Assembly: GCA_022843285.1 (NCBI GenBank)
Contig: JALHNY010000002.1
Coordinates: 21,124-85,123 of the forward strand
Direction: 5' to 3'
From: Minisyncoccota bacterium
Lineage (GTDB): Bacteria > Patescibacteriota > Minisyncoccia > UBA6257 > 2-01-FULL-56-20
DNA length: 64,000 nucleotides
This document shows, one piece after another, positions 15,234 through 30,804 of the stretch (position 1 is its first letter; the number at the start of each line of letters is the position of its first letter). The notes beneath the pieces are model-generated. The model did no database searches. It had not been told where the DNA came from and saw nothing but the letters and a program-made list of their open reading frames with translations. The translations under genes and the position numbers were made by a program.

Positions 15234-15305
15234 TCCGGCGTAGCTCAATGGTAGAGCGTCTCGCTGTTAACGAGGGGGTTGTAGGTTCGAATCCTACCGC
15301 CGGAG
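15234..15305 (+). tRNA. tRNA-Asn (anticodon GTT)
   Basis: Manual cloverleaf: acceptor tccggcg/cgccgga, D-stem gctc/gagc, anticodon stem tctcg/cgagg with loop ctGTTaa, T-arm gtagg ttcgaat cctac, discriminator G, no encoded CCA. Confidence 0.85.
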
Positions 15306-16901
15306 CATTACAGGATTTTCAGCGTAGATTGGCCCCATATCGCCCGTATTTGCTGGCGTTTTCACAGGTTCTAACCTCGTATTTATCGCTCGGACCTCTT
15401 TTGCCATCTCCAGCATAGGGAATAGCAAATCGTCCCAGGAAATGCTGAGTTCTTTGTCTTTGAGGGTGAGGTTATAACCTAGCGCGGCGAATAGGTCCTT
15501 TTTCACGGTAAGGTCGTTCTGCTCTTGTGCGTTGGCAAAGGCAGCAGCCGCTTTCTCAGCGAAGCTGAAGCCTGCCTCGGCTATGTCCAGCCAGTTCTCC
15601 ACGCGCTGGTCCGTGTCTGTGAGCTGGGCGGAGAGCCGCTCCTTCTCTCCCAGGAGGATTGCCTTCCTGTCAGCGAACTCGTCCTCGGTAATCTCGCCTC
15701 CCGCCCGCATATCTATCAGGTTGTTCAGCTTCCTGACGCAGGCCTCGTAAGCGCGGCGCTGTGCCCCGTAGATGCGGTCGCGGTCCTCGGTCTCCTGGGT
15801 ATTGGCTTCCTTGAGCGCGGCGAGCGCCCAGTCCTTGAAGTCGGCGGGTATCTCTATCTTGGCAAGCTCGCGGGCAATCTGCTTCTCCAGCTCTTTCTCC
15901 TCAATGGCGGGCTGGGTGCAGGTCGGGTCTTTCCGCCGCGTGCAGTGGTAATAGGTGTAGCGGTGCGTCTTGCCGTTCTTCTGGTGCTTCACCTTCTCCT
16001 CGGCGGTTATCATCGCGCCGCATCCGCCGCAGTGCAGAGGACCGCGGTAGGCAATCTCGTGCTCCTTGCCTCGCGGGGTGCTTTTCCTGCCGAGCAGGAA
16101 CTGGATACGCTCGTACTCCTCGCGCGTAATCATCGGCTTGTGGATGCCCTTGTGCCAGTTGCCGCTGTCCACGGGATACTCAAAGTCACCGTAGTAGAAC
16201 GAGCGCGTGAACATCAGATAGACATTGCTCCTAGTGAGCGGCTTGCCCTTCGGCATCCGCAGGCCCCACTCCTTCGTCGCTATCTCCAGAATGCGGGGAG
16301 GGGAGTGCTGGCCCGTGAGCATCAGGTCAAACATCTTCCGCACGATGTCAAAGCGCTCTGGGTCGGGGTGGATGGTCTTGTTGCCCTTCTCGGCGTACTT
16401 GTCGTTCATATAGCCGACAGGCGCTTGCGCGGGATAGACGCCCATCAGCGCCTTCTGGCCGAGGCCGCGCTTTACATCGCGCCCCTTCTTCGCGCTCTCG
16501 TACTGGCTCTGGGAGAGCGCCATCTGGAGCATCCAGATGCCCTCGGGGGTGTTCTCAAAGTGGTAGGTAACGAGCTTGAGGTCGCCAATCACATTCGTGC
16601 GGAGCATATAGGTGATTTCTCCCGCGTCCTTCTCGTTGCGTGAGAGGCGGTCTGGGTGCCAGGCGATGATGCCCGTGCGCTCGCCCTTGCGGATACGCTC
16701 CAGCATATCGGCGAACGAGGGGCGGTTGAACGGCTTGAAGGCGCTGGCCTTGTCCTCAACGAACTCAATATCCAGGTCGCCGAACTTCTCCCTGAGCTTC
16801 TCTTTCTGGGCAGGGATGGAGAGCGCCTGGCGCTCCTCGCCTTCGCTGGATTTCCGCACATAGGCGAAGTACTTGATTGTGGTTGATGTTGATTTAGACA
16901 T
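15294..16901 (-). CDS. large serine recombinase (resolvase/invertase N-domain, recombinase domain, zinc ribbon)
   Basis: N-terminus MSKSTSTTIKYFAYVRKSS(catalytic Ser)EGEERQALSIPAQ...GIIAWHPDRLSRN; C-terminal CGGCG...C ribbon and coiled-coil; the last 4 codons overlap the tRNA T-arm. Confidence 0.85.
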   Translation of the reverse strand: MSKSTSTTIKYFAYVRKSSEGEERQALSIPAQKEKLREKFGDLDIEFVEDKASAFKPFNRPSFADMLERIRKGERTGIIAWHPDRLSRNEKDAGEITYMLRTNVIGDLKLVTYHFENTPEGIWMLQMALSQSQYESAKKGRDVKRGLGQKALMGVYPAQAPVGYMNDKYAEKGNKTIHPDPERFDIVRKMFDLMLTGQHSPPRILEIATKEWGLRMPKGKPLTRSNVYLMFTRSFYYGDFEYPVDSGNWHKGIHKPMITREEYERIQFLLGRKSTPRGKEHEIAYRGPLHCGGCGAMITAEEKVKHQKNGKTHRYTYYHCTRRKDPTCTQPAIEEKELEKQIARELAKIEIPADFKDWALAALKEANTQETEDRDRIYGAQRRAYEACVRKLNNLIDMRAGGEITEDEFADRKAILLGEKERLSAQLTDTDQRVENWLDIAEAGFSFAEKAAAAFANAQEQNDLTVKKDLFAALGYNLTLKDKELSISWDDLLFPMLEMAKEVRAINTRLEPVKTPANTGDMGPIYAENPVMLRR

Positions 16902-17048
16902 AGGAAAAGCCCGAGAGGGACGGCCTGGTTGACCCGATATATGCAACCACAGGGATTAGCAGATAGCGGCAAACCGCCCCTCTCGGGCTACTATCAACGC
17001 TAATAACTGGAATGGTATTCATAATCGGGTCAACATAGACATTATAAG

Positions 17049-18191
17049 CTATTTGTCGCCTAAAAGCCGCCGCAGGTACGCCCGCACCTCGTCTGGTAGC
17101 TCTACCGTGCCGTCGCTGTTTTGGAAGTCCCGCAGCTCGCGCACGATGTCCACCGCGCGTTCCACGCCCATACTGCCGTACCCATACGCGCCGAAAGTTG
17201 TGCCGATGTTCTCGTGCCCGAGCGTCAAGCTGATAGCCCGCTTTTCCTCCTCGGTGAGGCGCATCTTGCTCATCAAGCTCACCACCAAGTGTCGGTACGA
17301 GTGAGGATGGTAGTACTTCACGCCAGCGTTCACGCACCGCTTCTCAAATATCTTCCGAGCGCTTCCCGTATCGTTCCAAAAGGAACGGCCGATACTGTCC
17401 TTGCTGTACGCCTTCTTCGTGCTGATTTCGCTTGAGGTAGCGGGGAAGATAGGGTCGTCTGGGGCAAATCCCTTGCTCTCCAGGTACTCGTACCACTCCA
17501 GGAAGTAGCGGCTGGGCTCATCCCATCCGATAGGGAAGAACGTCGTGATGATGGTCTTTGAGTTCTTTGTCCGCACGCCATCCGCAGGGTTCTGATGGAT
17601 GCGACGGGTCTCTTTGTCAAAACTCTTCATCTTGAGCGAGATGATGGCGCTGATGCGGCAGCCCGTAATGAGGGCAAAGCTGATGAGCGCCCTGTCGCGC
17701 ATAGCTATCTCGTTCGTGGGTTCAATGCTCCCGATTACTTGTTGCACCTCCTCAAGCGTGGGCATCGCCTTCGTCGTACCCGATAGGACAATCTGCATAT
17801 CCTTCTTGGAGATGCGTAGGAAGTCAGTATCTGCCTTGACCAGCTTCTGGCTATATTCGGGTTGAGAGGCAAGCCACTGGAAGAACTCCTTTACTCGCCG
17901 CAGGTAGTGATACCGAGTGGCGGGCTTCAGCTTCCCGTCGGGTGTCTTTGTCGTTTTCCGAATGAGCCACTCGCAGTACGCGGCTGCTTTGGACTTATTG
18001 AAGGTCGCAAAGTCCTCGCCACCAGAGAAAACCTGCCACTGACCGATGGCGTCGGCATAGTCGTTTACGGAGCTCTCGGAGAAGCCCTTTGCTCCGCGCA
18101 GGTGCTCAAAGAAACCGCGCTTTGCCTGCTCGTTTCGGTATGGGGTTTTGTCTTGTTGGTTGGGAGTGTTCATATTCGTGCAAACCGACAT
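17049..18191 (-). CDS. tyrosine-type site-specific recombinase/integrase
   Basis: 380 aa; N-terminal SAM-like domain; C-terminal catalytic region with ...HPHSYRHLVVSLM... and R..LGH..I..T (R-H-R-Y family pattern). Confidence 0.8.
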   Translation of the reverse strand: MSVCTNMNTPNQQDKTPYRNEQAKRGFFEHLRGAKGFSESSVNDYADAIGQWQVFSGGEDFATFNKSKAAAYCEWLIRKTTKTPDGKLKPATRYHYLRRVKEFFQWLASQPEYSQKLVKADTDFLRISKKDMQIVLSGTTKAMPTLEEVQQVIGSIEPTNEIAMRDRALISFALITGCRISAIISLKMKSFDKETRRIHQNPADGVRTKNSKTIITTFFPIGWDEPSRYFLEWYEYLESKGFAPDDPIFPATSSEISTKKAYSKDSIGRSFWNDTGSARKIFEKRCVNAGVKYYHPHSYRHLVVSLMSKMRLTEEEKRAISLTLGHENIGTTFGAYGYGSMGVERAVDIVRELRDFQNSDGTVELPDEVRAYLRRLLGDK

Positions 18192-20059: not shown

Positions 20060-21220
20060 TTATGCGACCGCGATGCCCCAGTCTTTCAACAGCCTACGCA
20101 CCGTATCGTCCTGGGCGCGGTTCTTGAGGTCGCAGTTGTTCGGAGGCGAGATAGTAACCGAGACCTGCTTGCGGCGACCCTTGCCCACCTGGGCGAATAT
20201 GACCGTGATTGTGATGCTCTCCGTCTCCCATCCGTCGTTCCTGTCCAGCCCGAGCTCCTTGAGGATTTCTTGCACGGCATCGGTGCCCGTGTACTGCCCC
20301 TTCCCGCGCACATCAATGAACAGCCTGTGCGGTACGCCCTTGCTCTTGAGGCGGATGGACTTGAGGAAGGAGCGCTCCACGCCATAAGAGCTGTCAGCGA
20401 CGAGCGTGAGCTTTGAGAGGTCGGTCGTGGGCGCGAGCGAATAGCGCGGCTCCTCGGTATTGAGGTCGCTGATGCCGAGGAAGTGCTTGGCAAAGCGCAG
20501 CTGGAGGTCCCTGACTATATCCTTGCCGCCAATGGCACGGACGCCGAGGTGCATTAGCTCGGGCTTATAAATGAAGATGGCGTCAAAGACGGGCTTGCGG
20601 GTGATTTTCTCGTCCAGCTTGCCGTCAACGAAGGCGGTATCGCGCGTCGGCAGGTCCTCCAGGTAAGCGCGAAGGATGATGTTCTCGCCCTCTCGGAAAG
20701 CCTTTATCTTGCACTGCTCGCCCTTGTAAGTGTTCTTATACGCGGCACGCACCTCCGCCTCAAACGCATTTATCTGCGCATCGGTGATTTCGTCCACGGG
20801 CTTCGTGCTCGGGAGCGACACCTCGGTAACAGCGTGGCTCTCTATGTTGGCTCGGCTGTAGTAGGTATCAAACTCGTCTGGATAGTTGATGTAAGCCAGC
20901 AGCGCACGCTCGTCGTTGTTCTGAGCCCGCTTCTCAATGTGCTCGGTGCGATTGATATCAGGGAAGTAGTCGCAGAGCGCCTTGATGTGGTTCTCCGAGG
21001 ACAGGGAGTTGATATAGGCGAACTCCATAAACACGCGGTCGCGTACCTGCTCGTCCTGTTCGTGCATAAAGACCATAAAGCGGTCCGCGCAGTCCTCGCG
21101 GCTCTCATCCTTCGGACCAGACGGGAAAGTAACGCCGTGGCGCTTCTGGAGGTACTCGGCGAGAAGCTCGCAGCTTATGTGCTGCGCGAAATCACGCGGG
21201 TCAGAGTAATGCGATGCCAT
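20060..21220 (-). CDS. hypothetical protein, island cargo (386 aa)
   Basis: Tandem with 19138..20055 (5-nt gap); no recognizable domain by eye. Confidence 0.55.
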   Translation of the reverse strand: MASHYSDPRDFAQHISCELLAEYLQKRHGVTFPSGPKDESREDCADRFMVFMHEQDEQVRDRVFMEFAYINSLSSENHIKALCDYFPDINRTEHIEKRAQNNDERALLAYINYPDEFDTYYSRANIESHAVTEVSLPSTKPVDEITDAQINAFEAEVRAAYKNTYKGEQCKIKAFREGENIILRAYLEDLPTRDTAFVDGKLDEKITRKPVFDAIFIYKPELMHLGVRAIGGKDIVRDLQLRFAKHFLGISDLNTEEPRYSLAPTTDLSKLTLVADSSYGVERSFLKSIRLKSKGVPHRLFIDVRGKGQYTGTDAVQEILKELGLDRNDGWETESITITVIFAQVGKGRRKQVSVTISPPNNCDLKNRAQDDTVRRLLKDWGIAVA

Positions 21221-21522: not shown

Positions 21523-21577
21523 CCTAATCACACCCAAAAAACATCTGCCTAAACCAGCACGGCACGGCAGAAAATAT

Positions 21578-21624
21578 CCCGACCAAGATAGTACGCTGTC
21601 CATCTATGGGCACTCTTGGTCGGG
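21578..21624. promoter_or_regulatory. 11-bp inverted repeat cccgaccaaga N25 tcttggtcggg (candidate operator) upstream of mod; a third half-site cccgaccaa at 21717-21725 abuts the mod ATG
   Basis: Read directly in the sequence; lies between the HTH gene and mod. Confidence 0.45.
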
Positions 21625-21729
21625 TCGCAGTCCGAAAGGTCTGTGGGCAGTCCGCGAGGATTGTCGCTTCCGCTAGGTGGGCAGCGTTCTATCGTCCAGA
21701 GCGGAGGCACATAAATCCCGACCAAAAAA

Positions 21730-23534: not shown

Positions 23535-23924
23535 ATGAGCGCTATGATTACCCAGGTAATGGCAGTCGCACACGAGGAGCATCTACAGGGCAAGCTGGAG
23601 CTCGCATTGAGCTGCTACAGCGACATCTTTGAGTTGCTCAGCGAGGAGGCGGACAAGCAGGCGAGCGCTGCCGATGGCACGCGCGTGCAGGTAGGGAGCC
23701 TGACAGTCGCTACGACGCTGCTCTCCGAAGCGAAGAAGAAGCAGTACCTGCGGCGCGACAATCTCGCCGCTATCGTGAGCAATAAGATAGGCGTTATCTA
23801 CGCGGAGCTCGGCCAGGAGGAAGACGCGCTGCACTGGCTTCGCCAGGCGATAGAGCTCACGCCCGACGGCGAGGACTATCCCGAGCCGCAGGACAACCTC
23901 AAGCACCTATACCCTGATGGATAG
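23535..23924 (+). CDS. TPR-repeat protein embedded between mod and res
   Basis: 129 aa; TPR-like helices (LELALSCYSDIFELL..., IGVIYAELGQEEDALHWLRQAIELTPD); starts 6 nt after the mod stop and overlaps the res start by 8 nt. Confidence 0.55.
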   Translation: MSAMITQVMAVAHEEHLQGKLELALSCYSDIFELLSEEADKQASAADGTRVQVGSLTVATTLLSEAKKKQYLRRDNLAAIVSNKIGVIYAELGQEEDALHWLRQAIELTPDGEDYPEPQDNLKHLYPDG

Positions 23925-26442
23925 CCTGTTCCTCAAGAAAATCCAGGAGCGCGTCGCGGAATGGCGCGAAGGCGACTATCAGGGTGTCCTGGACGAGACC
24001 CGTACCATTCTCAGGTACATCAAGACGGTGCGCTTCCTTCACGAGCCGCAGGTGGAGGCGCTGGAGACCTACATCTATCTCAAGGAGGTCCTGGGGAACC
24101 GCCCCTCGGCGGAAGTGTTCGGAGCATCCTTCGGGAATGAGCTGGAGTTCCTGCGAGCCCTCGGTATCACGGATGCGCAGGTCGCCGAGCTCGCCTTTGA
24201 CCCCAGGAAGGACGAGAGGATACAGGAGCTGCTCGGCGCTATGTTCGGCAGGTCCGACTACGCGAACCAGGTCTACGCGCTCACTATGGGTTCGGGGAAG
24301 ACCATCCTGATGGCGACGATGATGGTCTATGACTTCGTGCTCGCGTTCCACCATCCTGACGACGAGCGCTTCGCCAAGAACATCCTGGTGTTCGCGCCAG
24401 ACACGACCATCATAGACAGCCTCAAGGAGATAAAGACCTTTGACTACACCAAGGTCCTCCCGAAGGGCTACCGCAATATCCTACTCAACATCAAGTACCA
24501 CTACCTGGAGAGCCCCGAGACGCCTCTTTCCCCGATAGGCAACTTCAACATCATCGTCTCAAACTCGCAGAAGATAATCCTGAAGCGGAGGTCAGCGGAC
24601 CGTCGCAAGTCGCTGTTTGTTGAGCGCGACAAGAGGCAGATGCAGGAGAACAGCCGCCTCCTGGCAATCCGCCAGCTGGAACGGCTCTCCATCTTCGTGG
24701 ACGAGGCGCACCACAGCTACGGCGAGACGATGGACAAGGAGCTCAAGCGGACGCGCGAGACGATTGGCTACTTGCACGGCAACAAGCCGCTCGTCTCGGT
24801 CGTGAACCTCACGGGCACGCCGTATGTGAAGAACAAGATGGTGGCCGATGTCGTCTATCACTTCGGTCTCAAGGCGGGCATAGAGCGCGGCATCCTCAAG
24901 CAGGTCCGCATTCTGGACTACGGCAACGTGAAGTCGGAGCGGTTCGTTGATGAGGTCGTGGAGACCTTCCTGGGCGAGTACGGCGAGCAGCGTCTTGAGG
25001 GCAGGCTTCCCAAAATCGCCTTCTACGCGGCGAGCATCGCCGAGCTGCGGCAGGAACTCAGGCCAAGGATAGAGAAACTCCTCGCGCAGCGCGGCGTGTC
25101 CCTGGACAAGGTGCTGGAGTACCACACCGCGGCGGAAGGCAACAAGGATGAGTTCAAGCGGCTTGATACGGCGGAGAGCAACAAGCAGTTCGTGCTTCTC
25201 GTAGGCAAGGGGACGGAGGGCTGGAACTGCCGCTCGCTGGTGGCGTGCGCACTCTATCGTAAGCCCAAGAGCACCATATTCGTGCTCCAGTCCTCAACGC
25301 GCTGCCTGCGTTCCATCGGCGACAACTCCACCATCGGCCGCATCTTCCTGTCTCGCGAGAACTACCAGGTGCTGGACAAGGAGCTGCGCAGCAACTTCTC
25401 TGTCAGCGCGAGCGAGCTCTCGGCACAGGACCAGCGGACGGTTGACCACGAGCTGAAGGTGGAGAAGCGCAAGACGATTACGGTCAAGAAGGTCCTCAAG
25501 GAGGTGGTCTCCGCGAAATCCGTGGACGCCTCGCGCATCAAGGTGGACTTCAAGCGTTTCAAGCCAGCCGACTACCAGGCCTATGTGAGCGAGGGCGGCA
25601 TCCTGCTCGGCGCGAACAAGCGGGCTGGTTACAAGGAGGCGCGGGCAGTCCGCAAAATCAGCGAGACGGGGGACTTCACCTACTACGAGATTGTGGAGCT
25701 TATCAATCGGCATACGCACCTGCCGTGCTCGGTCGTTGACGACATCCTCTCTGGCAGCGGCAAGACGCAGGAGGCGCTGGTGCGGGATGCCAACAAGACG
25801 CCAGCCCTCGTGCCTTTCCTCATCCAGGAGGTCCTGATGGCTGCCTACCAGTACGAGGAGCGCACCGAGGTGGTGGAGGAGGAGCTTGAGCTGACCAAGC
25901 TGTTCCCGTTCAAGATAAGCGTCCAGAAAGGCAGGAGCGCCCTGGTCGTGTATCGGGAGGAGGGAGAGGAGGACGGGCACACAGGCCGCCTAGGGTTCCA
26001 CATCAATCCTTACAGCTTTGACAGCGGGGACGAAAAGGACCTGTTTCGTTACCTGCGCGACTACCTGGAGAAGGACGAGGGTATCGCGGACATCTACTTC
26101 ACGGGCGGCGCTCCCTACGCAGTCCATAACGACTTCCACTTTGAGTACTGGAGCCCCGAGCTCAGGCGGATGGCACGCTACTTCCCCGACTTCCTCATTG
26201 AAACCACGAAGGGTCGCTACCTGGTCGTGGAGGTGAAGGGGAACGACGAGAAGCTGGATTACGAGGCGAACCAGAAGTCCTATAAGGGCAAGCGAGAGCA
26301 GCTGACCAACGAGGTCTTCGCCAAGGAGGTGGGCTTCACCGAGTTCCAGAAGGTGAACAAAGGGTTTGAGTACCGCATCGTCTTCAACGCGACCGCGAAG
26401 CAAGCCCAGATGCGCCTCCTGGAAGACATCAAGCGCCTATGA
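23917..26442 (+). CDS. res: Type III restriction enzyme Res subunit (SF2 helicase-nuclease)
   Basis: Walker A TMGSGKT, DEAH box FVDEAHH, and a helicase C-terminal region; 841 aa. Confidence 0.8.
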   Translation: MDSLFLKKIQERVAEWREGDYQGVLDETRTILRYIKTVRFLHEPQVEALETYIYLKEVLGNRPSAEVFGASFGNELEFLRALGITDAQVAELAFDPRKDERIQELLGAMFGRSDYANQVYALTMGSGKTILMATMMVYDFVLAFHHPDDERFAKNILVFAPDTTIIDSLKEIKTFDYTKVLPKGYRNILLNIKYHYLESPETPLSPIGNFNIIVSNSQKIILKRRSADRRKSLFVERDKRQMQENSRLLAIRQLERLSIFVDEAHHSYGETMDKELKRTRETIGYLHGNKPLVSVVNLTGTPYVKNKMVADVVYHFGLKAGIERGILKQVRILDYGNVKSERFVDEVVETFLGEYGEQRLEGRLPKIAFYAASIAELRQELRPRIEKLLAQRGVSLDKVLEYHTAAEGNKDEFKRLDTAESNKQFVLLVGKGTEGWNCRSLVACALYRKPKSTIFVLQSSTRCLRSIGDNSTIGRIFLSRENYQVLDKELRSNFSVSASELSAQDQRTVDHELKVEKRKTITVKKVLKEVVSAKSVDASRIKVDFKRFKPADYQAYVSEGGILLGANKRAGYKEARAVRKISETGDFTYYEIVELINRHTHLPCSVVDDILSGSGKTQEALVRDANKTPALVPFLIQEVLMAAYQYEERTEVVEEELELTKLFPFKISVQKGRSALVVYREEGEEDGHTGRLGFHINPYSFDSGDEKDLFRYLRDYLEKDEGIADIYFTGGAPYAVHNDFHFEYWSPELRRMARYFPDFLIETTKGRYLVVEVKGNDEKLDYEANQKSYKGKREQLTNEVFAKEVGFTEFQKVNKGFEYRIVFNATAKQAQMRLLEDIKRL

Positions 26443-26939
26443 AGCTCCTACTGCTCATCATCGTGCTCGCTGGGCTCGCGGCACTTGCCGTATGGAAGAC
26501 GCGCGAGGAGGGCGGCGTTGAAGCAGCGAAGTACCACTACAAGCGGCGGGGTTTCCTGATGTCCCGTGCCGAGCACGAGTGCTACGACGCCTTGCTCGCG
26601 GCCGTCGGCGGCGAGTACCACATCTTCGCCCAGGTGCATCTGCCGAACCTCGTGGACAGCAAGGTAGTGGGGCAGAACTGGCGCGGCGCGTTCAAGCACA
26701 TCAGCCAGAAGTCCGTGGACTTCGTACTCTGCGACAAGGCGTACATCGCGCCGCGGCTCGCCATTGAGCTGGACGACAGGAGCCACGAGCTACCCGAGCG
26801 GCAGATACGCGACGCCGAGGTTGAGCGCATCCTGCGCGAGGCAGGTGTGCCCCTGCTCCGTTTACAGAACCGCGGCAGCTTCAATCCCGTGGAGCTCGCG
26901 CAACAGGTCCGAGAAGCAGTAGCGCCAGGGGTGGGGTGA
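26439..26939 (+). CDS. DUF2726 (NERD/PD-(D/E)xK-like) domain protein coupled to res
   Basis: ATGA overlap with the res stop; N-terminal TM; conserved ...CYDALLAAVGGEYHIFAQV...DFVLCDK...IELDDRSHE pattern. Confidence 0.55.
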   Translation: MKLLLLIIVLAGLAALAVWKTREEGGVEAAKYHYKRRGFLMSRAEHECYDALLAAVGGEYHIFAQVHLPNLVDSKVVGQNWRGAFKHISQKSVDFVLCDKAYIAPRLAIELDDRSHELPERQIRDAEVERILREAGVPLLRLQNRGSFNPVELAQQVREAVAPGVG

Positions 26940-27589
26940 ACATCTACCTGGACATAGACGGCGTGCTCCTCACCAAGAAGGGGGAGCCAGCCGAGGGCGT
27001 AGCGGGCTTCCTGCGTCGCGCCGTGGCCTCCCACGAGGTCTACTGGCTCACGACCCACTGTAAGGGCGATACAGGCCCCGTGGTGGCCCACCTGCGCCAC
27101 AGGCTGCCCCAGGAGGCCGTAGAGCTACTCCAGGGCATCAGGCCGACCACCTGGGGCTTCCTCAAGACGGATGCCCTGGATTTCAGCCAGGACTTCCTTT
27201 GGTTTGACGACTACCTGATGGATGCCGAGAAAGTGGTCCTGGAGCGGCACGGCAGTCTCCAGAAGCTCGTAGGAATGATTTGCCATTCGTATGGCCTCGC
27301 AGAGCCCGCATCGCTCTCAGGGCGCATCCACATTGAGCACGGCCTGGTAATCAGCGCATCGCCCGATGCCGTCTTAGGTCTCTACCGCGATGTCGCGGCC
27401 GACCGAGAGGCCGTTGAGAGCGCCTTCTGCTACTACGCGCTCTTGCTTCTGAAGGAGGGTGAGCGGGGAGGCAACTTCACGATTGAGCGCATCAAGGAGC
27501 TGTTGGAGAGCGACAAGGACCTCGCTGGCTCAAGGGCAGCCGCGCTGCTCAAGTCCTATCTCCTGAGAGCGGACGCTTCCTGGTCCTGA
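26936..27589 (+). CDS. HAD-superfamily-like hydrolase, hypothetical
   Basis: GTGA start/stop overlap with the previous gene; N-terminal HAD motif I-like IYLDIDGVLL. Confidence 0.5.
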   Translation: MNIYLDIDGVLLTKKGEPAEGVAGFLRRAVASHEVYWLTTHCKGDTGPVVAHLRHRLPQEAVELLQGIRPTTWGFLKTDALDFSQDFLWFDDYLMDAEKVVLERHGSLQKLVGMICHSYGLAEPASLSGRIHIEHGLVISASPDAVLGLYRDVAADREAVESAFCYYALLLLKEGERGGNFTIERIKELLESDKDLAGSRAAALLKSYLLRADASWS

Positions 27590-27593
27590 GCGA

Positions 27594-27923
27594 TTAGAAG
27601 CAGAAGGTATCGGTCTCGCTGCACACGCGGTCCACGTTGTCCTCAACATCGTCCATTCTCTCCTGGAGGTCGTAGATTTCGCTCTCCGCCCATCCGCCAT
27701 CTCCGTCATTCACCTTGTCCTCCAGGTCGCTGATGCGCGAACCGTAACTGCTCTGTCCGTAAGAGGAGCTCTCCACATCGTCAATCCTCTCATTGAGGCC
27801 AGCTATCTGCGCCCACTGCCAGAAGAACGCAATCACGAGTATGGCGATGATGATAGAAGCGGCCTTATTGCCTTTCACCCACGCCTTGAGGTCTGCCAGG
27901 CGATTGCCGTGCGGGGTGCTCAT
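27594..27923 (-). CDS. small hypothetical membrane protein with acidic DDVE repeats
   Basis: 109 aa, one TM helix (AASIIIAILVIAFFWQWAQIAGL). Confidence 0.45.
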   Translation of the reverse strand: MSTPHGNRLADLKAWVKGNKAASIIIAILVIAFFWQWAQIAGLNERIDDVESSSYGQSSYGSRISDLEDKVNDGDGGWAESEIYDLQERMDDVEDNVDRVCSETDTFCF

Positions 27924-27933
27924 TGTCTCGCGC

Positions 27934-28179
27934 TCAGGGGTGGAACTTCGGGTTAGGGTTCCTTCCTATCACCTCAAGCGTGTCCTGGTGGAGGATGCGC
28001 CCGCAATCGGCGCAGACATACAGGCCGTCCCAGTCGCTGCCGATTACTGGCTCCATCTCGTTGCCCTCCTTGTCGCAGGGATAGAAGCCGCCTCCAGAGG
28101 GGGTGTTGCCGCAGATGCAAATCCAGGCCTCGTCGTTATCTGGCTCGTGGGTGATACGTTCCTTGGTCGGGGTTTCCAT
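27934..28179 (-). CDS. small zinc-ribbon protein
   Basis: CICGN...CDKEG...CADCGR motifs. Confidence 0.45.
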   Translation of the reverse strand: METPTKERITHEPDNDEAWICICGNTPSGGGFYPCDKEGNEMEPVIGSDWDGLYVCADCGRILHQDTLEVIGRNPNPKFHP

Positions 28180-28232: not shown

Positions 28233-28261
28233 TAGACATTTCTCTCCGTATTATGTATAAT
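28233..28261 (+). promoter_or_regulatory. promoter of the DGR target gene (TAGACA-17 nt-TGnTATAAT extended -10)
   Basis: tagaca at 28233-28238; tgtataat at 28254-28261; the aggaga SD precedes ATG 28333. Confidence 0.5.
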
Positions 28262-28332
28262 ATGGATAGTTTCAGGAGGCGCTGCACGGCAGTTGCTCAC
28301 CCGAAATCAAAAGAGAATATAGGAGAAAAGAA

Positions 28333-28926
28333 ATGGGAAAAGTCATTGGTATTGAACAGTCCCACGCACTCTTGGCTATCTTGGCTCAGAACGTGGATTG
28401 GAGCGCGATTGAAGCGCAAACGGCGCAAGCCATCATCCTCGACCCGAAAGGGGCGGGCGCGAACTTCACGAAGTTCATCCAGCAGGGAGCGCGTGTCCTC
28501 AACGGCACGGGCAAGCTGATGGTTGACTACTCAGTGAAACCGTCGCTCATCTCGCTCGCCGTTGAGAGCCACGTTGACCGTTCGGACATCGCAGAGATAG
28601 ACATCAGCAAGCTCACCCGCGTGCAGATGCTCCGCGACGGAGAAAGCAGCATCTCAGGACACGATTACCTGAAACGCCTCAAAGAAAGCGGCGTGCCGAT
28701 GCTTGATGTCCGCGTGATGGAGGAGCTGCTCAAGCCCGAAAACCAGCACCTCATCCCCGAGGACTGGAAGAAAGGTCTGACCTACTTCTTCGGAACGATT
28801 TATCGCGTCTCGGTCGGCTTCCTCTACGCCCCCTACCTCAACTGGCACGTCGGCGAGTGGTTCTGGGACTACTACTGGCTCGGCCTCGACTGGGACGTCG
28901 GCGAGTTCGGTGCGTCCCTCGCGTAA
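28333..28926 (+). CDS. DGR variable (target) protein; the C-terminal VR in a putative C-type-lectin-like fold ends ...EFGASLA
   Basis: The C-terminal 40 codons are near-identical to the downstream TR except at TR adenines; no signal peptide. Confidence 0.85.
   Translation: MGKVIGIEQSHALLAILAQNVDWSAIEAQTAQAIILDPKGAGANFTKFIQQGARVLNGTGKLMVDYSVKPSLISLAVESHVDRSDIAEIDISKLTRVQMLRDGESSISGHDYLKRLKESGVPMLDVRVMEELLKPENQHLIPEDWKKGLTYFFGTIYRVSVGFLYAPYLNWHVGEWFWDYYWLGLDWDVGEFGASLA
28803..28923 (+). repeat. DGR variable region (VR)
   Basis: 121-nt alignment to TR 29264-29384 with 21 mismatches; 20 fall at TR adenines; GC-rich 3' IMH-like end ggtgcgtccctcgcg. Confidence 0.85.
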
Positions 28927-28980
28927 TCCCTCCGACCTCATTTCGCTTAGTAAGTTCGGGACCTTTGTCCCTTTGGATTT

Positions 28981-29020
28981 CACCCCTGTTCGGTTCTACC
29001 GCAGGGGTGATTTATATTTC
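28981..29020 (+). terminator. stem-loop plus T-rich tract downstream of the VR (terminator or DGR-associated hairpin)
   Basis: cacccctg ttcggttctaccg caggggtg followed by atttatattt; a smaller hairpin gggac cttt gtccc lies at 28958-28971. Confidence 0.5.
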
Positions 29021-29263
29021 AGGCCTTGCGTGATACCGTCGGGTCGGACAGTAGGCCCGCGTGCCCGCGGCTACGGTTGCGGACAGCCGAGCTCCGAGAG
29101 CCCTGGAGGTGGAATGTCGCGGGGTACGCCTCGCGCCAGCGCCCTGCCTGGCACTCAAAAAGAAATCTAAATCGGTGCAGGACGCTATGGGATTACTATC
29201 CCGAATACGATGCAGCCCCGAGAGCATTCAAGGGGCGGTGGCACTGGCGGCATCCTGTACAGT

Positions 29264-29384
29264 TCGCAACTCGGACGGCAACCTCTACGCCCCGTACCTC
29301 AACTGGAACGACGGCAAGTGGAACTGGAACTACAACTGGCTCGACAACGACTGGAACGACAACGAGTTCGGTGCGTCCCTCGCA
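29264..29384 (+). repeat. DGR template region (TR), non-coding RNA template
   Basis: Adenine-rich in AAC codons (in-frame reading ...NLYAPYLNWNDGKWNWNYNWLDNDWNDNEFGASLA); the cognate of the VR. Confidence 0.85.
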
Positions 29385-29416
29385 ATCTGGATTTCTCCTC
29401 CCGCCTGGTTCCCCAA

Positions 29417-29716
29417 TCAGGCGGGAGTTTCCTTACGAGCCACGGCCTGGCGGCTCCAGCCGCCGAGCATCCTGCCTATCTCCGCGAGCGGCTCTGACAG
29501 CGCGACATACTTCTTGTTATCCAGCGCCTTCACCTCCCAGATGAGCTGGAGGAAGAACTTGAGGAGGTCCAGCTTGGCGATGGCCCGACCGAGGACCGCC
29601 GCCTTCTGCTCCTTCGGCGCGTAGCTGGCGACGAACACCAGCTCAATCGTGTCGGCGAACACCGCGTCTATCTTCTCGCCCAGGGTGTAGCGAGCGGTCT
29701 TCGGGATGTGGGGCAC
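29417..29716 (-). CDS. avd: Avd-like accessory variability determinant (four-helix-bundle protein family)
   Basis: 99 aa, helical; C-terminal ...YVALSEPLAEIGRMLGGW resembles the conserved ...IGKMLxGW end of four-helix-bundle/Avd proteins; lies between TR and RT on the opposite strand. Confidence 0.5.
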   Translation of the reverse strand: MPHIPKTARYTLGEKIDAVFADTIELVFVASYAPKEQKAAVLGRAIAKLDLLKFFLQLIWEVKALDNKKYVALSEPLAEIGRMLGGWSRQAVARKETPA

Positions 29717-29775
29717 GAACTCGTGCCACTGCTTGTAAGCCGATACCAGGTGCTGGATTATCGGGATATTACTGC

Positions 29776-29786
29776 GGGGGGGGGGG
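29776..29786. repeat. G11 homopolymeric tract in the avd-RT divergent intergenic region
   Basis: gcGGGGGGGGGGGcg at 29776-29786. Confidence 0.9.
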
Positions 29787-29805
29787 CGTTCTAAGAACAG
29801 TCATT

Positions 29806-30804
29806 ATGAGAAGTCAGTTACCCATTACCTACGACGACATCACGAGCGCAGAGAACCTCTTGAGCGCGTGGGGCGAGTTCGTGCGTGGGAAGCGGGCTAA
29901 GAAGGATGTACAGGATTTTTCGTTCCGCCTGATGGACAACATAATGCAACTAAGGAGCGAACTCGTCAATATGCAGTACGAGCACGGCCCCTACGAGGCG
30001 TTCAACATATCCGACCCCAAGCCGCGGAGCATCCATAAGGCCTCCGTGCGCGACAGGCTGCTGCACCACGCCATCTACCGCCAGCTCTATCCCTTCTTTG
30101 ACCGCACCTTCATCGCCCAGTCCTACTCGTGCCGCAACGAGAAAGGGGCGCACAAGGCGATGGACACCTTCCGCTCTTACGCCTACGACGTGAGCCACAA
30201 CCACACGCGGACCTGCTGGGTGCTCAAGTGCGACATCCGCAAGTTCTTCGCCAGCGTGGACCAGGCCGTTCTCCTTGAGGTGCTGCGAGCCTACATCCCT
30301 GACCCCAAAATCCTCTGGCTCCTGGAGCGCGTCGTAGGGAGCTTCAACTCAGGCAGGGAAGGCAGGGGACTGCCGCTTGGCAACCTCACCTCGCAGCTCC
30401 TGGTGAACATCTATATGAACGAGTTTGACCAGTTCGCCAAGCACGGCCTCAAGGCGCGTCGCTATCTGCGCTATGCGGACGACTTCACCTTCCTCTCGGA
30501 CGACAGGCAGGAGCTCGTGGACCTGATACCGCGCATCAGCGAGTTTCTAAGGGAACGGCTCAAGCTGGAGCTGCATCCCGACAAGCTGTTTATCAAGACC
30601 TTCGCCTCGGGCGTGGACTTCCTTGGCTGGGTGCATTTCCCCGACCACCGCGTGCTGCGGACCGTTACCAAGCGGCGAGCGCTCAAGGGCTTCAAGAGCA
30701 AGCCGACCCCAGGGACACGCGCCTCCTACCTCGGCCTCCTGACGCACGGCAACGCCCACAAGCTCTCGCGGACACTGACACCTGCGCCTACTCCAGAGCA
30801 GTGA
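29806..30804 (+). CDS. DGR reverse transcriptase
   Basis: RT motifs: GLPLGNLTSQLLVNIYMNEFD (LGxxxSQ typical of DGR RTs), YADD box RYADDFTFL; 332 aa. Confidence 0.9.
   Translation: MRSQLPITYDDITSAENLLSAWGEFVRGKRAKKDVQDFSFRLMDNIMQLRSELVNMQYEHGPYEAFNISDPKPRSIHKASVRDRLLHHAIYRQLYPFFDRTFIAQSYSCRNEKGAHKAMDTFRSYAYDVSHNHTRTCWVLKCDIRKFFASVDQAVLLEVLRAYIPDPKILWLLERVVGSFNSGREGRGLPLGNLTSQLLVNIYMNEFDQFAKHGLKARRYLRYADDFTFLSDDRQELVDLIPRISEFLRERLKLELHPDKLFIKTFASGVDFLGWVHFPDHRVLRTVTKRRALKGFKSKPTPGTRASYLGLLTHGNAHKLSRTLTPAPTPEQ

Follow-up and report, generated by a model that had tools for sequence, protein, structure and literature searches.

The stretch of DNA analysed here, hereafter the window, comprises 64,000 nucleotides of a Minisyncoccota bacterium (positions 21,124 to 85,123 of the forward strand of contig JALHNY010000002.1, assembly GCA_022843285.1). 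It very probably carries a complete and recently active diversity-generating retroelement (DGR) of the Patescibacteria (candidate phyla radiation, CPR) clade, on a tRNA-Asn-linked integrative island of a Patescibacterium with a high guanine-cytosine (GC) content. All defining parts of a DGR were found, as had been claimed in an earlier reading of the letters alone (the sequence-only reading), and the comparative data, an invariant template and differences between variable repeats at adenine sites, indicate activity. The target gene (28333-28926, plus strand) encodes a variable protein of 197 aa, and the variable repeat (VR, 28803-28922, plus strand) codes for its last ~40 residues, which form four beta strands. 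The template repeat (TR, 29264-29383, plus strand) contains 32 adenines, and the reverse transcriptase (RT) gene (29806-30804, plus strand) encodes 332 aa with an RVT_1 domain. The accessory gene avd (29417-29804) lies on the minus strand, with its stop codon at 29417-29419 and its frame open to 29773, followed upstream by a poly-C tract. In the mechanism proposed for the locus, the retrohoming steps of which are taken from the Bordetella phage BPP-1 model, the RT, assisted by Avd, would turn an RNA carrying the TR into complementary DNA (cDNA) with unfaithful copying of the TR adenines, and this cDNA would replace the VR, rewriting the end of the soluble target protein. The 32 template adenines permit 4^32 (~1.8e19) DNA variants.

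Repeat pair, reverse transcriptase and evidence of activity

The VR (28803-28923) and the TR (29264-29384) were aligned without gaps at an offset of 461 nt over 121 nt, and tabulation of the 21 mismatches placed 20 of them at TR adenines (32 adenines in 121 nt; hypergeometric p = 1.2e-13), reproducing the adenine-specific signature that the sequence-only reading had described. The base changes found in the VR at these adenines were A to T (10), A to G (8) and A to C (2), and the sole mismatch elsewhere was a G to C change at repeat position 31. Translated in the target frame the TR reads RNSDGNLYAPYLNWNDGKWNWNYNWLDNDWNDNEFGASLA, and the 10 AAC codons counted in that frame agree with the AAC richness claimed for it. 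The repeat length of 121 nt given earlier holds for the gap-free alignment and does not hold for the true extent of the repeat: in the last column (28923/29384) the TR has A and the VR has G, and since G is found there in all VRs examined, this column was taken as the repeat boundary rather than a mutagenised site, so that the repeat is effectively 120 nt long. An independent repeat search of the window returned the same pair with a length of 120 nt. The 3' segment of the VR (28903-28922, GAGTTCGGTGCGTCCCTCGC) is invariant and constitutes an end resembling the initiation of mutagenic homing (IMH) site; the final 20 nt of VR and TR are identical and GC-rich, after which the homology ends abruptly. 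No further VR for this TR was found within the window, where the TR matched only itself and the single VR.

Six close homologues of the target were identified among 5.8 billion proteins, and their alignment shows residues 1-157 as identical or near-identical, the differences clustering at AAC-templated positions. On the contigs of these homologues the VRs differ from the TR at 17-24 positions, and when seven VRs were pooled, 31 of the 32 TR adenine positions were variable, as against 5 of the 89 non-A positions. The window and contigs L001-L004 share one TR sequence with 100% identity, and every related element that has a TR carries it unchanged, save L093 (6 differences); this perfect conservation spans lineages with only 88-91% DNA identity between their RT genes and 90-92% identity between their target bodies. 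An exact look-up of the RT protein retrieved the same element in contigs from five runs of one study, in which the flanks are 100% identical and all 25 differences over 3.9 kb fall in the VR. Three VR alleles are present in these contigs, namely the window allele, the window allele with one A-site change (L090) and a wholly different allele (L001/L088), and their occurrence in otherwise identical DNA provides a strong, if indirect, sign of recent mutagenic homing.

The catalytic YADD and the DGR-type LGxxxSQ motif reported for the RT were both read in its translation (RYLRYADDFTF and LPLGNLTSQ, the latter containing LGNLTSQ), and the protein matched RVT_1 with E = 1.6e-23; its match to a group II intron model reached 138 bits and lay below the cut-off of 300. 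In a search of 185,579 species genomes the closest RT relatives were 61-68% identical and came nearly all from metagenome-assembled genomes of Patescibacteria/CPR (Saccharibacteria, Paceibacterota, Kaiserbacteria and Doudnabacteria), and the nearest of them all adjoin Avd genes. A DGR clade restricted to Patescibacteria (clade 2) has been described (Roux et al., 2021, PMC8144416), and the architecture TR-(avd)-RT, termed B3, has been assigned to CPR DGRs (Wu et al., 2018, PMC5758913). The placement of the window RT in this clade rests on best matches. The locus shares with these systems its gene order and orientation, a small RT, an Avd, a small target with a C-terminal VR and a Patescibacterium as host; it differs from them in being located on a tRNA-linked island together with a type III-like restriction-modification module. 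A survey of related CPR loci (L008-L087; 80 loci, 774 kb, 74 of them scoreable) gave a median GC of 0.46, unlike the 0.65-0.70 found outside the island in the window.

The named matches of the housekeeping protein TypA encoded in the window were solely from Parcubacteria, Liptonbacteria, Wolfebacteria and Paceibacterota, most of its top matches, the closest among them, being nameless, and from the sequence matches the host was concluded to be a Patescibacterium of unusually high GC. Transfer of a CPR-type DGR into a high-GC host outside the CPR was considered and rejected, as all named top relatives of TypA belong to Patescibacteria. As a DGR, the locus is entirely typical of a clade that has been catalogued and well surveyed (CPR, architecture B3), and its value is that of a clean natural example, with a template invariant across lineages and three VR alleles in identical DNA. 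Follow-up is merited by the target family, which is still uncharacterised, and by the conserved slippery repeat at the avd/RT junction. In L002 (16213-17361), ~4 kb downstream of the DGR, a second reverse transcriptase with an RVT_1 match (382 aa) was observed, adjoining an IS1595 transposase and a ClpP gene.

Compared with the DGR of Bordetella phage BPP-1 (mtd-VR, avd, TR, brt), the locus has in common an RT with YADD and LGxxxSQ, an Avd, the adenine-specific flow from TR to VR, a target of lectin-like fold (predicted in the window) with the VR at its 3' end, and a repeat whose 3' end is invariant and GC-rich. It differs in several respects. In the window avd follows the TR on the opposite strand, so that the spacer between TR and RT is antisense avd and a single operon of the avd-TR-brt type is impossible; a terminator-like hairpin stands after the TR rather than after the VR; the target is a cytoplasmic-looking cellular protein and not a phage tail fibre; and a homopolymer is present at the avd 5' end.

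The avd gene and the repeat tract at the avd/RT junction

The minus-strand open reading frame (ORF) of 99 aa at 29417-29716, previously described as Avd-like, matched Pfam PF22296 bAvd with 44.2 bits (cut-off 40) and the NCBIfam model NF033474 with 71 bits (E = 9e-20), under the 80-bit cut-off of the latter. Its identity as Avd was thereby upheld, and its length was not: the alignment to the NCBIfam profile begins at 'PIIQ', the ORF starting from GTG at 29716 lacks the first ~18 profile positions, and the Avd domain extends 19 codons further upstream, reaching the poly-C tract, so that the 99-aa ORF is N-terminally truncated. The Avd frame upstream of this GTG reads ...RPPPRSNIPIIQHLVSAYKQWHEFV and contains no ATG, GTG or TTG. 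The only upstream ATG (29804 to 29802) is located one base from the RT ATG on the other strand and is out of the Avd frame by one base. In three lineages the 19 codons upstream of the GTG have accumulated 11 nucleotide changes and 1 amino-acid change, and over avd including this region three pairwise comparisons gave 36 changed codons with 4 amino-acid changes; by this comparison avd, together with the stretch upstream of the GTG, is under strong purifying selection. The placement of avd between TR and RT on the opposite strand was as the sequence-only reading had it. Its description as an unusual layout was not sustained, since the order corresponds to the CPR norm B3 and an inverted avd directly upstream of the RT was found in 74 of 74 scoreable related loci; judged from these loci, the inverted layout is the norm for the CPR lineage. 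The possibility that avd is an invertible segment was rejected, as no inverted repeats flank 29385-29805 and the orientation is fixed in all of these loci.

A homopolymer of 11 G (C11 on the avd strand) occupies 29776-29786, 19 nt upstream of the RT ATG and between the upstream ATG and the Avd frame. Nine assemblies from three diverged lineages have G11, and L002 has G9; both lengths miss by one step the 10 bases that would put the upstream ATG/GTG in the Avd frame. No canonical in-frame avd start was found in the window, L001-L004 or L088-L093. A simple-sequence repeat stands at the same position in 71 of the 74 scoreable related CPR loci, usually as G7-G14, with (GT)n in L008, L041 and L061 and (CT)n in L066 as the non-poly-G tracts. 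Runs of at least 8 G or C number just 68 in the 774 kb surveyed and occur in 64 of the 80 loci, essentially all at the avd/RT junction. When the frame state of avd was scored, an in-frame canonical start was present only upstream of the tract in 14 loci, both upstream and downstream in 13, and only downstream in 23; 24 loci, the window included, have no in-frame start whatever, and 3 have no repeat. About a third of the tract-bearing related loci are in frame, and many Avd proteins in the databases read through the tract (M-x(n)-PPP-x-LPIIQ). Tract length differs between close relatives (9 vs 11; 10 vs 11). An exact-pattern scan of JGI metagenome contigs for tract-length variants gave 0 matches. 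Ten viral relatives were retrieved from IMG/VR; the tract was absent in 7 of the 7 that have an inverted avd directly upstream of the RT, where avd starts with a normal ATG, and the tract is therefore not part of the core DGR mechanism. A role of the poly-G as Shine-Dalgarno sequence of the RT was rejected, because the spacing is 19 nt here and 12-45 nt elsewhere and because (GT)n or (CT)n can substitute for it. In one sub-clade the tract is flanked by a -35-like and a -10-like hexamer, at 13 nt from the RT start. The DGR literature searched, which did not cover Paul et al. 2017, contained no mention of a repeat of this kind.

It is exceedingly improbable that the VR/TR pair is an ordinary duplication or that G11 is an artefact of assembly. 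All that speaks for it is that a 120-nt repeat exists and that homopolymers are known to be hard to sequence; a duplication is at odds with mismatches that are adenine-only in pattern and with a TR that is invariant over seven loci against variable VRs, and an artefact is at odds with the identical G11 in independent assemblies from six runs and with the confinement of long G/C runs to this junction.

Several points weigh against a complete and recently active element. The VR variation is known from consensus assemblies, not as read-level heterogeneity within one population; avd lacks an in-frame canonical start in all 9 assemblies of the lineage, so that the element could be off or decaying; and a simple promoter scan found no plus-strand promoter for the TR or the RT. 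Decay, in which the DGR would be inactive, avd a frameshifted pseudogene and the VR differences relics of past activity, would account for the missing Avd start and for tracts that in the window lineages are G11 or G9 and never the in-frame G10. Such decay is nevertheless improbable, given the purifying selection on avd on both sides of the GTG, the unchanged TR alongside RTs that have diverged by 9-12%, the three VR alleles within otherwise 100% identical DNA of one study, and the retention of a tract, about a third of the time in frame, throughout nearly all of the related loci.

As a tentative proposal, the tract in DGRs of this CPR clade would be a conserved hypermutable switch, acting by avd frameshift or as an RT promoter spacer and rendering expression of the mutagenesis machinery stochastic and reversible. 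Because the window allele has no canonical start in the Avd frame, Avd, and hence mutagenesis, may depend on slippage at the tract at the DNA or RNA level, and control of the DGR by slippage is plausible. Of these forms, a frame switch in avd like that of classical contingency genes best fits the window lineage. RNA polymerase slippage in place of DNA slippage is a third possibility, which would account for a stably kept G11. If the proposal is true, G11 would be an off-by-one state that locks the current VR, and rare G10 variants or slipped transcripts would reopen diversification, making the element a phase-variable hypermutator.

Simple-sequence-repeat contingency loci include the poly-G/C tracts of Campylobacter and Neisseria genes and the (TA)n between the divergent hifA/hifB promoters of Haemophilus influenzae. 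Such repeats stand in a 5' coding region or promoter, and G11 likewise lies between the upstream ATG and the Avd domain. The junction resembles them in the position of a G/C homopolymer of 7-14 (or a repeated dinucleotide) between divergent genes and at an ORF's 5' end, in a tract length that varies between close relatives, and in the mixture of in-frame and out-of-frame alleles across loci (contingency loci compared: PMC4965091, PMC5084427). The likeness is drawn from consensus assemblies, and the retention of G11 by three diverged lineages is not what would be expected of a rapidly drifting tract.

The tract might instead be a promoter spacer for a leaderless or nearly leaderless RT mRNA, its length tuning RT transcription without any frame switch in avd, and Avd would then start just downstream of it at TTG or GTG (here at the near-cognate ATC). 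Of 69 loci, 23 have TAnnnT directly behind the tract (background 4%), and in 12 of the 23 this hexamer precedes the RT start codon by exactly 7 nt; a -35-like xTGGCA stands 17-19 nt from TAnnnT in 14 of 16 such loci; tract length is anticorrelated with the non-tract spacer (r = -0.74); and in 30 of 69 loci TTG is the codon that precedes the conserved Avd Pro, compared with 17% of Leu codons elsewhere in avd, an excess that fits either a start codon at that place or an overlapping -35. These loci are, however, not phylogenetically independent, many called Avd proteins read through the tract, and the window lineage has neither TAnnnT after the tract nor a -35-like hexamer before it, its codon at the putative Avd start being ATC/ATA. 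A spacer of this kind was regarded as rather unlikely. The natural regulation of DGR activity has been called an open frontier (2026 paper, PMC12875486); the conserved slippery repeat at the avd/RT junction is a concrete candidate for on/off control of DGRs and would matter for engineering them.

The target protein and its family

The target was predicted to consist of an N-terminal three-helix domain (residues 7-50) and a compact, C-type-lectin-like C-terminal domain (residues ~60-197). The AlphaFold model reached a mean confidence (pLDDT) of 94.4 with a 109-member alignment, compared with 55.6 with seven sequences, and in this model the fold of the C-terminal domain is a compact C-type-lectin-like one, for which the DGR variable proteins Mtd (1yu0), TvpA (2y3c) and TaqVP (5vf4) served as comparison. 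The target itself had no match in Pfam, NCBIfam or PADLOC, and the 109-member alignment gave no meaningful Pfam family match and no PDB sequence match. A fold search in the BFVD viral fold library returned nothing significant, and no relatives of the target were found in IMG/VR viral contigs. A profile search with the target against 1.84 billion cluster representatives (50% identity) yielded 1,953 relatives at E <= 1e-3 and 498 at E <= 1e-10. The members are mostly ~200 residues long, and a few have 2-4 tandem domain copies. The family is large and has neither a Pfam model nor a solved structure, so that for many CPR bacteria the diversified receptor is still uncharacterised.

No hydrophobic segment was found in the target (maximum 19-residue Kyte-Doolittle score 0.99), in agreement with the absence of a signal peptide noted from the letters, and an N-terminal hydrophobic segment occurs in only 3 of the 109 family members; a cytoplasmic location of the target is plausible for these reasons. 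Tandem variable lectin-like domains were observed in P0017, P0019, P0039 and P0092 (2-4 copies, up to 804 aa), and P0046 has one domain copy fused to a Cys-rich N-terminal region that starts with a hydrophobic, lipoprotein-like segment.

A copy of the target C-terminal domain, 72% identical and with a diversified VR, was also observed at 4767-5447 of L005, where 21 of the 25 differences from the window TR are at A sites. This copy sits in a phage-like early region with ERF, NinG/HNH, YopX and helix-turn-helix (HTH) genes, and the 7.3-kb contig has no TR and no called RT or Avd gene. It may belong to a phage DGR located off the contig, or it may be a target carried by a phage and diversified in trans.

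Non-coding elements, island and neighbouring genes

A promoter-like site of the target gene was located at 28233-28261 (plus strand; TAGACA-17-TATAAT, 11/12), a consensus match only. A GC-rich hairpin at 28980-29019 (plus strand), 57 nt past the VR, has the arms TCACCCCTG and CAGGGGTGA with a 13-nt loop and is followed by the T-rich TTTATATTT; it is likely the terminator of the target gene, and a role as the downstream stem-loop of DGRs is only a candidate one. The non-coding spacer before the TR (29026-29263, plus strand, 238 nt) is 94-95% identical between lineages, a conservation that exceeds those of the RT (88-91%) and the target body (90-92%); it is possibly the 5' part or the promoter of the TR RNA. 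The TR region had no Rfam match, and its overall fold was not significant (z = -1.3). A further hairpin of 13 bp at 29398-29427 lies 14 nt past the TR, in overlap with the avd stop codon, and is followed on the plus strand by TTTCCTT in a terminator-like manner, and it is a candidate for the 3' end of the TR RNA and/or the terminator of the convergent avd. Because of the conserved upstream spacer and this terminator-like hairpin, the TR RNA may be a discrete transcript apart from the RT mRNA. A promoter-like site directed at avd was noted within the 5' end of the RT gene (29941-29969, minus strand; TTGACG-17-CATTAT, 9/12), a weak consensus match.

The integrated island proposed in the sequence-only reading was supported by its elements. 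The GC content falls to 0.53-0.60 over ~14-37 kb of the window, and an integration module at 15234-18191 comprises a tRNA-Asn (15234-15306, plus strand), a large serine recombinase (15294-16946, minus strand) that overlaps the tRNA 3' end, and a tyrosine integrase (17049-18191, minus strand) with an HTH gene next to it. A direct repeat of the tRNA-Asn 3' end was searched for as an att site delimiting the island, and none was found. The integrase and HTH genes are followed in order by a type III-like methylase, a TPR protein, an 841-aa ResIII helicase, a DUF2726 protein and the DGR, and L002 shares the order tRNA, recombinase, integrase, methylase, helicase and DGR.

The genes at 23917-27589 (plus strand) directly upstream of the DGR encode the 841-aa helicase, the DUF2726 protein and an unmatched protein of 217 aa, with overlapping stop and start codons, and the C-terminus of the helicase weakly matches a type III restriction enzyme. 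Combined with the genes of the methylase and the TPR protein, this set has the look of a type III-like module for restriction or defence that travels with the DGR. A LOOT RNA (RF03000) was detected at 21546-21665 (plus strand) of the window with 63.3 bits (gathering score 46.4), just upstream of the type III-like methylase; it is absent from L002, where the methylase directly follows the integrase, and present in L003 (2333-2452, plus strand), again upstream of the methylase. Two small genes divergent from the target lie at 27594-28179 (minus strand) and encode a Cys-rich, zinc-ribbon-like protein of 81 aa and a protein of 109 aa with an N-terminal hydrophobic stretch, neither with a family match; they are absent from L002 and kept in L001 and L003.

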